This document shows, piece after piece, positions 2,154 through 36,751 of a stretch of 41,753 bases of DNA (positions are counted from its first letter, which is position 1; each line of letters begins with the position of its first letter). The stretch is from the NCBI GenBank assembly GCA_023231475.1, contig JALJEE010002408.1, positions 62,001 through 103,753 of the forward strand, in the 5' to 3' direction. This DNA is from Seison nebaliae (lineage: Eukaryota). Under the pieces are notes generated by a model. That model saw only the letters and a list, made by a program, of their open reading frames with translations. It searched no databases and was not told the DNA's origin. The position numbers were made by a program, and so were the translations under genes.

Positions 2154-2590
2154 TTAACCATAATAGTATCCATTAGGATTATAATATCCATTTGGGTTAT
2201 AATATCCAGGATTGTAAGCAGGTTGACCTCCATAGTAACCGCCATATGTACTCAATGGCTCGTATTTTCCTGGCCACCATCTTCCATCGTCATAACGACG
2301 TTGTCGATCCTCAACACATCGATCAACTGCTGATCGAGGGATGCAACTTTTGGTGGCCAGATCATAAGCTAAACCATTTCCACAAACATTCAATTTTCCT
2401 GTGGTACAATCGTAATATTTTTCGCACATCGTAAAATGGGGAATGATGGCTTTCGGCTGTATGGAACAGATATATGATTGTAACGAAACTCTACCTAATA
2501 AAAATCGAAAAGTTATATATTTGAATAGATAAAGAACAACGAACCATAGGCGAAACCGAGGAAACACATTAAAATGATCAGACACTTCAT
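2154..2590 (-). CDS. Small secreted chitin-binding type-2 (CBM14/peritrophin-A-like) protein with Tyr/Gly/Asn/Pro tail, ~128 aa; exons 2545-2590, 2154-2494
   Basis: Exon 1 gives signal peptide MKCLIILMCFLGFAYG; 50-nt GTT..AG intron; six Cys spaced like CBM14 (C..CEKYYDC..C.NGLAYD...KSC......C); YNPNGY repeats at the C-terminus. Confidence 0.75.
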
Positions 2591-2820
2591 CTTGTTTGAA
2601 AGTGATGAATGAAGAGAAATACTTTGCAATTTATAGAAGTAAAAAAGATTTATTTCAATAGATAACAGACAACAAAATGACGATTAGTAGAAAGATGAGA
2701 AACTTTTGAATAAATACTGAAAAATCTTTTGTAAATATTTATCAAAATTTATTGCACAAAATATTTGACAAATATGTCTCGTCCAGTCCAGTTCAAATGA
2801 AACGAATTTCACTATGAGTA

Positions 2821-31624: not shown

Positions 31625-34040
31625 ATGAAGTCTATTTTGTCAAATTCGAGGAAGAGTCCATATGGCGATGAAGAACGATTAATCAATGAGATGAATAATG
31701 ACGATCATCAAACCACACCGATTATAAGAGATCGATTGAGACGCATATCAACTCAGGATGATACTCAAAGGTTTATCTAAATTGAATTAAGAATATTTAT
31801 TTACTTATTTCAGTATTATGTCAATGGGTGTTCAATCACATTTATGCTCCCAAGATCGAGATAAGATCCAGAACAAAATCATCCGAATGGTACAAGGACA
31901 AGTGTCACATATCCGTCGATCATTCTATCTATTGAGTGGATTTGATATGATTCTCTTTCTAATTTTATGGTTAATGAAATGTGCCGTTTATTTAACTTTT
32001 TTTCCGTTGCATATGATATTCTGTTGTTAGATTTCTGGTAAGCCGATATATACGGTGATTGTGGAAGAAGTGGTGCATTATGATGTTAAACGATCGACAT
32101 TCGATTTATTGGTTAATTTCTATCGGCCTCAAAAAAGTTCGTTGACTCATCTCCTTTAGATTTTATCGATTTTCAGATTTTCTCTATTGATGGCTGGTTA
32201 TGGTTGTATGAAGACATCACAAGTATGGATCGTTGCTGTTACTATTTAATTAACTTTTTTAAAATTAATTTAAATAATTAAATTTAAATTCTTTTTAATA
32301 TTTTATTTGTAAAGGTTTCTACAATTCTCACCAATGGATCATGTGTCTTCAAAATAGTCATGATAAGTGTTTAAAATTAAAAATTTTTGTTTATTAAATT
32401 TCACATTCCATTCTCTAATAGAGATCCCATTCAGATCCGTTGTTAATGGTGTTGGTGTTGTTGATAATATTTTGTTCGTTCATTATCTCATGGGTGGAAT
32501 TGTGGTTCTTCGGATTTCGCGTTCTACCAACAGAAACAAAATTCAAATCGAAACGTTTACTTTTTTCCTTCTTCTACTTTTCATCAAACGGTCACGTCCT
32601 GACTTTCCTTTTCTATTAAATTCACTTCATTTTCCATTGGAAATTCTTTTTAATAGTTTTCCGTTTTAATTGTTTGTCCTCCCTTTCTTTTCACATTCAG
32701 TTCGTTCGGATCCACTACTTCGTGAATATTTCAATTATATTAATTGGCGTTTAAACGCCGATCCAGCTACTTTAGCAGTCTATAATACATTTGGTATCAT
32801 CCCATCCGTTGAACAGAATCACGGAATTAATCTTCCTTTCAATCGGTCACGTCAACACAGTCAATTACATTCGGAACCACTTCCTGAAACGTTGGGCTCT
32901 ACTTGCGAACGTCTCAGAAGACAGCGGTTTCCTGAACTCAGTGGTTAGTTTTAGGCTCATCTGAAATGACAATCAATTTTATTCTGATTCAAAAAAGCCA
33001 ATTCTGATACAGAGGATGAAGCTGGTGACCGGTATAAGACACCTTTGAATGAAATGGCACCAAACGCTGTGAAAGAAACATTATCTGTCGATGACATTGC
33101 CTTTGCAAGATTCGCTACTGAAGCTACGAATAAATTAGGAACGTTAATCGATATTGACAAAACAGGTCATCGTATCCATAAACAGAACACATTGGATGGT
33201 TGGACAATAACGAAGAATATTGATAACGATACTGTTTATACAAAAATCATAAAAAAGCGAAAAGTGATCCGATTAGAGAGTGTGATCAATTGTTCTCCTT
33301 TTCAGTTATTTACCATTTTATTCACTGAAATCGATCAAATGCCATATTGGAATCCCAATATTTCAAAAGCACGTATTTTAAGAAAACTTGATGATTCCAC
33401 TGTCATCACTTATACGGTAGCGAAAGAAGCTCTCAATGGAACGATTAGTGCTCGTGATTTTGTCACAATTAATCAATACGTCGCTTATCCGCCGTCCAAT
33501 CAAGATACTTTCGCTTATCTCTTATCTGGTATGAGTATTACACATCCTGAATTCCCTCCAGTTAAAAATACGACTCGTGGAATAACTCATCCTTCAGGTT
33601 ATGCCATTGCTCGTTTAGGACAACCGAAAGAACATATAATTGATGAAACGGCTCATTTTGAACGAGCTGATGAACCGCCTGATTCTGACGAAGAAGAAAT
33701 TCCTGATAACGAACAATATGATGATGATGATGATACATCAACTATTCCCAGATTGTTTAATGCAGAAAAACGTTCTGAACGTATTCCAAGGAAACGAGGA
33801 AAAGGAAAAGGAAAATTATCGAGACATCTTACTCGATTGACAGATAACGAGAATAATAATGCTCGATTAAGTATCAAACGAATCGAACCAACTCAACGAT
33901 CTTTATTGATATCAATAGTGAATGTTGATTTGAGAGGATGGTTACCTCAAACACTCGTCGACAAAGCATTAATTGGTAATCAATTAGATTTTGCAAAGAA
34001 TTTAAGAACTTATATTAAGAAGAAATATAGTTATACTTGA
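31625..34040 (+). CDS. STARD3: StAR-related lipid transfer protein 3 (MENTAL + START), ~649 aa; exons 31625-31770, 31814-31985, 32031-32111, 32160-32237, 32315-32368, 32422-32554, 32701-32943, 32998-34040
   Basis: MENTAL: SHIRRSFYLLSGFD..LFLILW, HYDVKRSTFDL, FRF, SFIISWVELWFFGFRVLPTE; START: MPYWNP, ISARDFV, VDLRGWLPQTLVDKA; seven GTT introns. Confidence 0.88.
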
Positions 34041-36751
34041 GAATCCGTCCTCGATGTACTTCTACGATTCTCTTCATTCAACGGATCGATTTCAATCAAT
34101 TTCTCATTTAAACGTTTACTCCATATCGATCTTTCATCCACCGAATTTATCTGTATAACATAAAGAAGAATACAAGAATGTTATCATGCAATTTTCCATT
34201 TTTATCACAACAGATAATACAAATTTATTCCAACAACCATATTTGACATTTGAAAATTTATTTATTTTTTAATCATTCCACCATCACAATTGCATTTGAT
34301 TTAGAAACAAATCTAATTTTTATTCTAACTTCGTAACTTATTCTTAATAAACCACTGTGTTTCTCCATTTGTTGCTCTTTTTGCCATTCGATTATCTCAT
34401 GAAATATTTTAATGGATTCTTCACTCAACTTATTCGAATCGACCACCAAATGCAACAAACAATAATTACCTAATAACAATAACAAAGGTAATAAAACATG
34501 AAAATTTTGTCAATTCTTCTTCTAATAACCAGCGACGTACATTTTTCCATTCTCACTTTGAGCATTGGGATCTGTAATAACAAATTCCATTTCCGTTCCA
34601 TATGATTTTTTGTCCTTAAAAAAAAACCATTTTCATTAAAGTTTTCAATGAAATTTAACTCGAATTTTCTTCGACGATTCCACACGTTGTGATGAATGAA
34701 TATTTCTCTTATTCGTCACTTTCGCTAAACTGGCGGTGGATTGATTTAATGATGAACCGGTATTCGATTTTTTATTTCCAACATCTTTCCTCGAACTCTC
34801 CGCATTCTATGGCAATCGATAAGAAAATTTTAAAATGAAAAGAAAAACTTTAGTTGTCGGCTTTTTTGATTGTTGAGTACTGGCTTTGGAAGCAGCTCCA
34901 ACTTTCCTCATGCTGCTGATTGGACGATCGGTAGGATTTCCAGTAACTTTCTTATGTGGAATTGTTGATGATGATAATTTAGTAACAACGTCCTGAGTTT
35001 GATTCAAAAGATATTGATGAACATCTGTCGTCCATAATAACTTTCGTCTTTTCACTAATTCTTTGTGAGTTAAAGGAAATTTTGTTAGAATTTGGAAAAG
35101 GTATCGTATCGATAAGTCAGTTAATTCGTTATCAGCAAGATTGAGAGAGACTAATGTTCTGTTAAATTTTAAAGAGTCAAAGATCTTTATTGTCTGTTCG
35201 TCACCTATTTTATTTCCGGTGAGATCGAGACTTATTATTTTTGTAAATGCAGAATTTTCCGGATGACCGATACGTCCTGCTATTTCACTCACCGCTTCCC
35301 GATTCAAACGACAGAACCTTAACGACAAATGGGAAATCCTGTAAAATGTTTGAAGAAAATATAGTTTTTTTTTTAGAATTTAAGAAAAAAACGTTAATTG
35401 TTGTGGTAGCATTATATGAAAATCTTGATTTGGTAAGGGATTATTATCAAAATTTAAACGCTTCAATGACTTACATTCAATCAAGACATCTGATAACAAT
35501 TTTAGTAGTTCCGTGTTGAAGTTATTATTCCAGAAACTTTTGTTCCAATTGGAAATTAATTAAAAGAACAGAAAAAAGTCGAACTATAATTCCGTTAAAT
35601 GTTTTGCAGCAGACAAACAATTTTTAAGTATTTCCATAATCGAAACATCAATTTTCCAATCTATAATTCAATCGGACGAATATTTGAACAATAACATATT
35701 CTTTAACTTTTTATATGGAGTGCCGATAAGTGTTCAATTTTATTCACCACATCAATGGAAATAGACACTCGCGGTTTTATGTATTCATTGGTCGATTCTA
35801 AGATGAAAGTATTTAAATGATTCTCATCAAAATCTGTTTGAAGAATATTGACGAATTGTTAATATATAATAATTTAAATTGAACTTTCTGGTTCTTTTAT
35901 TTCATTTTGACGAACAGTACTTGAAGACTTTATTGTCTTTTCACTACTCTTCATTTCACTTCCTATCAAATAAATTACGATTATATGACAACTAAATAAT
36001 GTAACTTTGAGATTTTTCTGACAATTTAACAGGTTCATCTTCAACAGTTTCCGTGAACTTCAATTCTTTTTTCTTTTTTTGATTTTTCATTTTAATGACA
36101 GGAAGCAAAAACGGATTATTCGCAATTTCAGGTAACAGTTTCAATTTCAATTCTCTCAACGGTTCTATGGGCGATAGATCTTCATATGGATTTCGATGTT
36201 CATATTTAGGGACGAAGTTATACAAATTTTTCAAGGGATGACTCTCCAAATGCTTTTTGAATGAATTCTGAATAAGATGAATATATTACATTGAGAAATG
36301 GAAAAATCATAGTAACATTTATATTGATCATGAAAGGCATTGAATCTGCTGATTCAGAGAAAGTCAATTTGTCTGAGAGTATTTTCTCAAATACTTCCTC
36401 TTCGTCTTTTATTTGAATAACGGGATTCTTATTGGTATTACTACCACCTGTTGGAGGAGGAACTGATGGGGGTTGTAATGCCGATAAATTTTTCTTATTA
36501 AGCTGATCCATTTGTGAACGACGATCTCTTTGAACAACGGGAGGAATATAAATTAAATTTTTCCTTTTCCCCAATGCTTCGAAGTCGTCTGCAAATCGTC
36601 CAGAACAAATATATTGTCCATCTAAAAATGTTAAGAAGGAATATTATTAAAAAATTTTCAATTGAAAACTCTCATCAACAGATTCGATATCTTCAAATAT
36701 TTCCGATGTTTCACTAATAGGTCGAATTAAAATATCGGGGACGATATTCAT
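34031..36751 (-). CDS. LRRC71: Leucine-rich repeat protein, LRRC71-like, ~684 aa, 12 exons; introns 36622-36669, 36268-36316, 35963-36005, 35834-35884, 35661-35707, 35537-35584, 35339-35392, 34807-34848, 34615-34659, 34470-34529, 34151-34329
   Basis: YICSGRFADDF, WKID, LNFDNNPLP, ISHLSLR, LDLTGNKIGD, LKFNRTLVSLNLADN, FPLTHKELVKRRKL, GNYCLLHL, GLLRIS, IDP appear in LRRC71 order; eleven GTT..AG introns keep one frame. Confidence 0.8.

Follow-up and report, generated by a model that had tools for sequence, protein, structure and literature searches.

GTT donors and little signal beyond the third intron position: predicted 5' splice sites in a 42-kb window of the Seison nebaliae genome

A stretch of 41,753 nucleotides (nt) of the genome of Seison nebaliae, a small marine rotifer of the seisonid group (assembly GCA_023231475.1, contig JALJEE010002408.1, positions 62,001 to 103,753 of the forward strand), referred to here as the window, was analysed with respect to its 5' splice sites (donors), for which a sequence-only reading had reported 43 introns in 11 genes, 41 starting with GTT and two with GTC. 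Gene models were rebuilt independently of that reading and comprise 42 introns in 11 genes on both strands (2495..36669), predicted in the DNA sequence of this one 42-kb window from reading frames and homology. The introns, two further ones of a database model and one unused site are given below in window positions, each donor being written as the first six intron letters.

2495..2544, minus strand: intron of a small CBM14 chitin-binding gene, donor GTTCGT at 2544; open frame, posterior 0.89 in the blind gene finder (see below), GTG alternative present
7908-7970, 8113-8164, 8273-8324, 8550-8595, 8811-8868, plus strand: MPI introns, donors GTTCTA, GTTTCT, GTTTTT, GTTCAA, GTTTAA
9514..9572, minus strand: intron of a gene for a 150-residue protein, donor GTTAAA at 9572; open frame, blind posterior 1.0, no GTA or GTG alternative
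14718-14661, 14509-14459, 14018-13861, 13658-13497, 12703-12653, minus strand: FATP introns, donors GTTTAA, GTTCTA, GTTTGT, GTTTAG, GTTCTT
15735-15687 (GTTTTC), 15447-15397 (GTTAAA), minus strand: RPS14 introns, at positions common to other rotifer-like and other eukaryote loci
15463..15471, minus strand: unused near-canonical donor CAG/GTATGA, G at 15468, in frame and 21 nt upstream of the RPS14 donor 15447
16489-16537 (GTCATT), 16961-17014 (GTTCAA), 18383-18434 (GTTAGG), 18888-18940 (GTTAAT), plus strand: introns of a lysine-rich gene (16489..18940); open frame, no homology, 3/4 introns confident in the blind finder
20656-20603 (GTTATA), 20397-20351 (GTTTAT), 19646-19596 (GTTAAT), minus strand: introns of a gene with an open frame and no homology
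23797-23745 (GTTTTT), 23413-23363 (GTCTGA), minus strand: myosin light chain introns; open frame
27501..27544, plus strand: intron of a BRO1/ALIX-domain gene, donor GTTAAT; blind posterior 0.96, in-frame GTA alternative 15 nt upstream
31771-31813, 31986-32030, 32112-32159, 32238-32314, 32369-32421, 32555-32700, 32944-32997, plus strand: introns of a STARD3-like gene (MENTAL and START domains), all GTT
34151..36669, minus strand: LRR gene, given the tentative name LRRC71 in the sequence-only reading, donors at 36669, 36316, 36005, 35884, 35707, 35584, 35392, 34848, 34659, 34529 and 34329, all GTT
37093-37041 (GTTCCA), 36936-36622 (GTTTAA), minus strand: two extra LRR-gene introns used by database protein P0242, outside the 42

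All 42 introns have the GT..AG termini of major (U2-type) introns and, judging by frames and homology, would be removed from the mRNA; the frame is open to the stop in each of the 11 genes. As to the third position, 40 donors read GTT, two read GTC (16489 and 23413) and none reads GTA or GTG, so that the purine of the canonical animal donor GURAGU is found in 0/42. The pyrimidine at +3 in every intron, claimed by the sequence-only reading, therefore stands on a count of 42 in place of 43, and given the composition of intron interiors its probability is ~1.7e-9. Composition also falls short of explaining the preference for U over C (P 0.007; 2/42 C), and both non-GTT donors carry C (P 0.06). 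Past +3 there is almost no signal: relative to intron interiors the information content is 0.83 bits at +3 and nowhere above 0.19 bits from +4 to +10, with T17 A17 C8 G0 at +4, A19 T12 G7 C4 at +5 and T20 A17 C3 G2 at +6. The rarity of +5G noted earlier (7/42) was thus confirmed, while the absence of G at +4, which was reproduced as well, turned out to be barely informative (P ~0.05), as intron interiors contain only 7% G. On the exon side, G is found at -1 in 17 donors (P 0.0008) and A at -2 in 25 (P 0.004). A canonical donor has +5G, or -1G where +5G is missing; both are missing in 23/42 donors, compared with 6 of 1,990 introns in a human sample (PMC8283771; this and the other publications cited here are represented by excerpts).

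The used donors match the canonical consensus at a mean of 4.2/9 positions, a value which rises to 5.1/9 with the changed U1 discussed below, although partly by construction, and 10 unused GTA or GTG sites near donors fit the canonical consensus better than the donor that is used. The former argument that AT-richness favours GTA as much as GTT does not hold for this DNA, where GTT accounts for 0.44 and GTA for 0.25 of the GT words between genes, and for 36 and 10, respectively, of the 65 GT words inside introns. Minor (U12-type) introns, the strict donor motif of which is RTATCCTT, are excluded, no donor having A at +3. As far as prediction and homology in one window can tell, the donor change in this animal is real and constitutes a striking new variant of donor-site transformation.

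The placement of the junctions was assessed with a gene finder having no model of positions +3 to +8 and an intron model derived from the five introns of MPI; it was applied to both strands of the entire window. Above a posterior of 0.8 this blind finder called 27 donors (26 GTT and one GTC, the five training introns among them). Under the same settings, nine rotifer-like loci, which are described below, gave 19 donors, i.e. 8 GTT, 6 GTA, 4 GTG and one GTC, including some false antisense calls; since GTA and GTG are called in this other rotifer DNA, the finder still detects purines at +3. When GC donors were allowed, 25 GTT, one GCT and one GCC were obtained above 0.8, and the two GC calls are distrusted because GC was not penalised.

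In addition, all frame-keeping GT/GC..AG pairs within 60 nt (GT..AG pairs in the case of RPS14) were ranked by homology to non-Seison profiles, built from 98 homologues for MPI and 73 for FATP. The GTT junction came first in 10/10 introns of MPI and FATP (5/5 in each) and in 2/2 of RPS14, and the best GTA or GTG alternatives in MPI and FATP, where any existed, were 5.6 to 60.7 bits worse. At MPI 7908 and RPS14 15447, canonical decoys beat the used donor on consensus yet fail on homology. The CAG/GTATGA site at 15468 has 7/9 canonical matches against 5/9 for the used RPS14 donor, but was ruled out as a junction, being 31.6 bits worse and deleting seven conserved residues. The GTC intron of the myosin light chain gene (23413-23363) corresponds to an exact 17-residue insertion relative to solved light chains. 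In the LRR gene the model junction ranked first at 9/11 introns, with a clear margin at about four, and a GTA or GTG alternative stood at +0.1 and +2.0 bits at two. Hence the earlier statement that conserved proteins fix the junctions, which is borne out by 12/12 introns of MPI, FATP and RPS14, applies decisively to only about 4/11 in the LRR gene; the RPS14 and MPI donors quoted in it were all found in place. No frame-keeping, stop-free GTA/GTG..AG alternative lies within 30 nt of both ends for 27/42 introns, and of the 15 introns that have one, six had it rejected by homology and nine retain it.

Four database proteins, the models of which are likewise predictions, could be reproduced exactly: 31/31 of their junctions are GTT..AG and 27 are common to the 42 described here. 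The MPI model equals P0001 exactly, the FATP introns are present in P0121, all seven STARD3-like introns (three of them with GTA or GTG alternatives) in P0241, where the MENTAL domain is unbroken at residues 80-220, and 10/11 LRR-gene introns in P0242. Exon queries from MPI, FATP and STARD3 each had a Seison nebaliae database protein as best match (100%, 94% and 100%, respectively), and a fourth query matched a protein of 693 residues at 100%. Two further GTT introns of the database models were rejected as probably false predictions or rare real events, namely 13330-13283 (minus strand) of FATP, at which ~56 bits are lost, and 33924-33987 (plus strand) of STARD3, which cuts away the last part of the START domain. 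Between 2400 and 22399 the window has counterparts in high-depth contigs (runs of two studies), with 11 differences in all, none of them at a donor. Runs X1 and X2 cover introns in the same way as exons, and their contigs are therefore taken to be DNA.

Two nuclear genomes have been described for Seison nebaliae (PMC8351084). A second genome, about 80-90% alike in exons and with diverged introns, is represented by contigs of low depth (2-5) in runs X1, X2 and X5 over window positions 11600-19400. In the RPS14 intron 15447-15397 they show at least nine substitutions and at least eight indels, one of which lies at +4 and none, among those listed, at +1 to +3, i.e. GTT is kept at 15447 while the intron body differs. 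At four donors the alignments of the second genome stop at +3 (15445), +4 (15732 and 14506) and +7 (14012). As low-depth contigs can hold errors, this apparent conservation of the donor is to be regarded as supporting, not decisive.

A sister-group control was drawn from metagenomic RPS14 loci, the best 80 of 438 being used. Nine AT-rich loci (L001, L005, L007, L010, L011, L012, L049, L058 and L066), probably of bdelloid origin, have both introns at the Seison positions and with lengths of 50-62 nt; one of them adjoins a gene whose nearest clusters are Rotifera, and the rest are grouped with this locus on the strength of exon 2, where the DNA is 86-95% identical. Clusters of 10 FATP homologues and of five L007 frames carried no rotifer name. 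Their donors are GTAAGA (three), GTAAGT (two), GTCAGT (three) and GTGAGT (one) in intron 1, and GTTTGT (six) and GTTCGT (three) in intron 2. Pyrimidines thus occupy +3 in 12/18 and A or G in 6/18, and +5G is present in 18/18, it being understood that the 18 donors represent two positions in about seven distinct sequences and not 18 independent introns. In all 80 loci taken together, 27 introns occur at one or other of these positions, 26 of them with +5G. Four more putative donors, GTTGAC, GTAAAG, GTTAGT and GTTGGT, were read by eye from frame breaks in the rotifer-like loci.

In Seison, the counterparts of these donors are GTTTTC and GTTAAA. Positional ancestry was compared for these two introns and is shared in 2/2, and since both stand at ancestral positions, old introns were converted in place to GTT without +5G. 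The earlier claim of a changed donor recognition in this lineage gains support from this conversion as well as from the exclusion of the decoy at 15468. What the sequence-only reading missed is that, to judge from the RPS14 loci, a +3 pyrimidine is already common in other rotifers' donors; the novelty would lie in the exclusion of purines combined with the loss of +5G.

Among the closest known systems is Entamoeba with its GUUUGU donor, in which +3U is likewise fixed in GT-AG introns (40/42 in Seison) and U1 compensation has been proposed (bioRxiv 10.1101/2022.06.08.495308). The signal of Entamoeba, however, is a strict GUUUGU(U), found as GUUUGU in ~88-90% of its few introns and with +5G kept, whereas Seison shares GTT only: +4T is found in 17, +5G in 7 and +6T in 20 of the 42 donors, and GTTTGT just once. 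Moreover, Seison is an animal with up to 11-12 introns per gene, known here by its donors alone. The animal Fritillaria borealis also has a major spliceosome that works without the usual donor consensus (PMC13326754); there, ~95% of introns break the GT/AG rule and U1 and U6 are conserved, while in Seison GT..AG is retained in 42/42 and the change concerns +3 and +5. A weak signal past GU together with exonic -2A and -1G (25 and 17 of 42 in Seison) is reminiscent of the AG//GUNNN (U5-type) donors (PMC11732430), but in that class exonic AG compensates and +3U is not fixed, and 23/42 Seison donors lack both -1G and +5G. No description of Seison donors was found in the open literature, the supplements of the genome paper and subscription journals being outside this scope; the main text of the genome paper holds one unrelated mention of splicing and no term for the spliceosome or for small nuclear RNA (snRNA). 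Nor did an animal with fixed +3U turn up in listings of papers on bdelloid donors and on the co-evolution of animal U1, or in passages of one of them (PMC10599564).

The cause favoured here, tentatively and somewhat short of an even chance, is that the U1 base facing +3 has changed from U to A and that the boundaries are recognised chiefly through intron definition, across introns that are short, U-rich and G-poor. A change of U to A at U1 position 6 (ACUUAC to ACUAAC) would pair with U, tolerate C and exclude purines at +3. An A partner would fit the data, given the preference for U over C and the C in both exceptional donors, as expected from pair geometry. In the usual register +5G pairs with C4 and +4 with Psi5 of U1 (PMC4856993). 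The starting point may have been a state like that of the other rotifers, in which a +3 pyrimidine is tolerated and +5G kept, and which would have offered a neutral path; in Seison, U would next have become fixed at +3 and constraint been lifted from +4 to +6, the long pairings with U1 and with the ACAGA of U6 thereby ceasing to select sites. The leftover helix, with about 5/9 matches on average, would be too weak alone, and intron definition across the short U-rich, G-poor stretch would find the boundaries while GTT marks the cut. In Entamoeba, the one published +3U lineage found, U1 reads ACAAAC and the ACAGA motif of U6 is unchanged (bioRxiv 10.1101/2022.06.08.495308). Taken further, Seison might be an intron-rich animal whose genome has been recoded to GTT donors with an altered recognition base in U1 (or U6) and +5G unused, and as such the first animal to combine co-evolution of a core snRNA with a donor signal of three letters; this wider view is put forward with reserve.

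Several observations weigh against the favoured cause. A standard U1 is retained by the majority of lineages with atypical donors (bioRxiv 10.1101/2022.06.08.495308), and in the animal Fritillaria borealis neither the U1 5' end nor the U6 ACAGAGA has changed (PMC13326754). A U1 change by itself can account neither for the missing +5G nor for the almost complete lack of signal from +4 to +6, a point which had been overlooked in the sequence-only reading. In coding sequence, GTT is not specially depleted (411 observed vs 454 expected); GTA, like other TpA words, is depleted more strongly, and GTRAG shows no depletion. At 9/42 introns (2544, 18383, 20656, 27501, 32238, 32369, 32944, 36316 and 34659) a GTA or GTG alternative still stands, and the sample is a single window of predicted junctions. 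The window itself holds no snRNA, as no Rfam family was matched within its 41,753 nt.

A close rival, plausible even if on balance doubtful, is that the donors are real and the U1 and U6 sequences unchanged, +3U being imposed through proteins (U1C, LUC7, Prp8, SNRNP27K or a U-binding factor), through altered modification of the snRNAs, or through pairing with U6 G44, which, itself unchanged, would form G-U or G-C with +3 once purines lose their stabilisation. With neither -1G nor +5G in 23/42 donors, RNA pairing cannot carry the selection, which speaks for such a mechanism, as does the precedent of F. borealis, where splice sites changed through U2AF duplication and m6A (N6-methyladenosine) changes (PMC13326754). 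Furthermore, +3 faces U6 G44 according to a figure legend (PMC8283771), and loss of METTL16, SNRNP27K or LUC7 moves donors off ACAGA pairing (PMC11732430). A G partner, however, should favour C no less than U, contrary to the 2/42 (P 0.007) observed here, and the perturbations reported in PMC11732430 shift +4 and favour exonic AG, whereas -1G is present in only 17/42 Seison donors. An alteration of U6 is a different matter: should G44 of the ACAGAGA box have become A, +3U would be read at the catalytic step and the pairing of ACA to +4 to +6 lost, yielding the same order of U over C over purine and connecting the +3 rule with the missing +5G. The ACAGA of U6 is nevertheless near invariant across eukaryotes and, as far as the excerpts go, intact in both Entamoeba and F. 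borealis, and this explanation is considered improbable.

Equally improbable is an artefact or local accident, in which T-rich introns pull the junctions to GTT or the window is atypical of the genome. One must bear in mind that GTT is the commonest GT word here, that the junctions are predictions from DNA, that a looser first finder run without an intron-content model (unused for the counts) gave many false calls of all classes and overcalled antisense genes, and that the database models, two of whose GTT introns look false, are predictions themselves. These concerns are countered by the 27/42 introns without a frame-keeping purine alternative and the six more excluded by homology, by the GTA and GTG calls of the same finder in other rotifers, by the donors unaffected by the 11 differences to high-depth contigs over 2400-22399, and by the agreement of eleven unrelated genes on both strands. 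Standard pairing with U1, its register shifted or bulged (GT-T-AAGT) as at the ~1.5% of human sites which share the +3 pyrimidine with Seison but need +6G (PMC4856993), could account for a modest excess of +4A with +5A (8/42 vs 4.1 expected, P 0.05); given +6G in 2/42 donors and GTTAAG in 0/42, the displaced consensus is absent and this option, very improbable by now, is already largely refuted. Least credible of all seems a recently spread, transposon-derived intron family that starts with GTT by chance. The narrow length range (median 51 nt) would suit such a family, but both RPS14 introns lie at positions common to other eukaryote loci (2/2 compared), repeats of exon end and intron end occur in 0/42, and all-against-all BLAST gave 33 short AT-rich matches, the 15 listed of which lie on both strands and reveal no family.

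In animals, the contacts that U1 and U6 make at +3 and +5 are regarded as almost invariable. An animal which swapped the former and dropped the latter genome-wide would, if this is true, provide a natural experiment in the co-evolution of signal and spliceosome at thousands of sites, and would show how little donor information suffices when introns are short and U-rich. Published strict-signal cases come mostly from intron-poor protists, whereas Seison is intron-rich, and as other rotifers appear to keep the intermediate state (free +3, fixed +5G), the path should be traceable with existing genomes. Standard donor models would misplace junctions in the Seison genome.

As for the remainder of the introns, 37/42 measure at most 63 nt (range 42-179) and their interiors contain 50% T. 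No branch-point motif above chance was found in the 42 introns, YTRAY occurring in 23/42 against 22.7 in shuffled ones. Acceptors reading AAG are present in 10/42, a larger share than in most animals, and, together with the lack of a branch-point motif above chance, this may indicate that the 3' splice signal is also relaxed in Seison. Four of the 42 introns (12653-12703, 16961-17014, 20603-20656 and 23363-23413) are in frame without a stop, so that retaining them would lengthen the protein.

Two alternative first exons are possible for the LRR gene, one starting at ATG 37098 (two additional GTT introns, as in the database model) and the other at ATG 36751 (donor 36669), both of which join the acceptor at 36622. 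Convergent genes overlap at the stop ends of their reading frames in two places, between the STARD3 and LRR genes (34029-34040) and between another gene and the myosin light chain gene (23256-23278). The last exon of the BRO1/ALIX-domain gene contains a long glutamine/asparagine-rich repeat stretch (27600-28200, plus strand). In the coding sequence of the window TpA words are under-represented, and TCG/CGA are over-represented across codon boundaries. Several long genes without a coding intron (127-1973, 4650-5399, 5803-7425, 10426-12252, 28982-30691 and 38678-39256) stand beside neighbours with 5 to 12 introns, the products of the intron-free genes being two trypsin-like proteins and proteins of the adenylate-kinase family, glycosyltransferase 2, SPRY/LisH/CTLH, ELMO and CFA20 types. 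The SPRY/LisH/CTLH gene may have a 67-nt GTT..AG intron (12276-12342, minus strand) in its 5' untranslated region.

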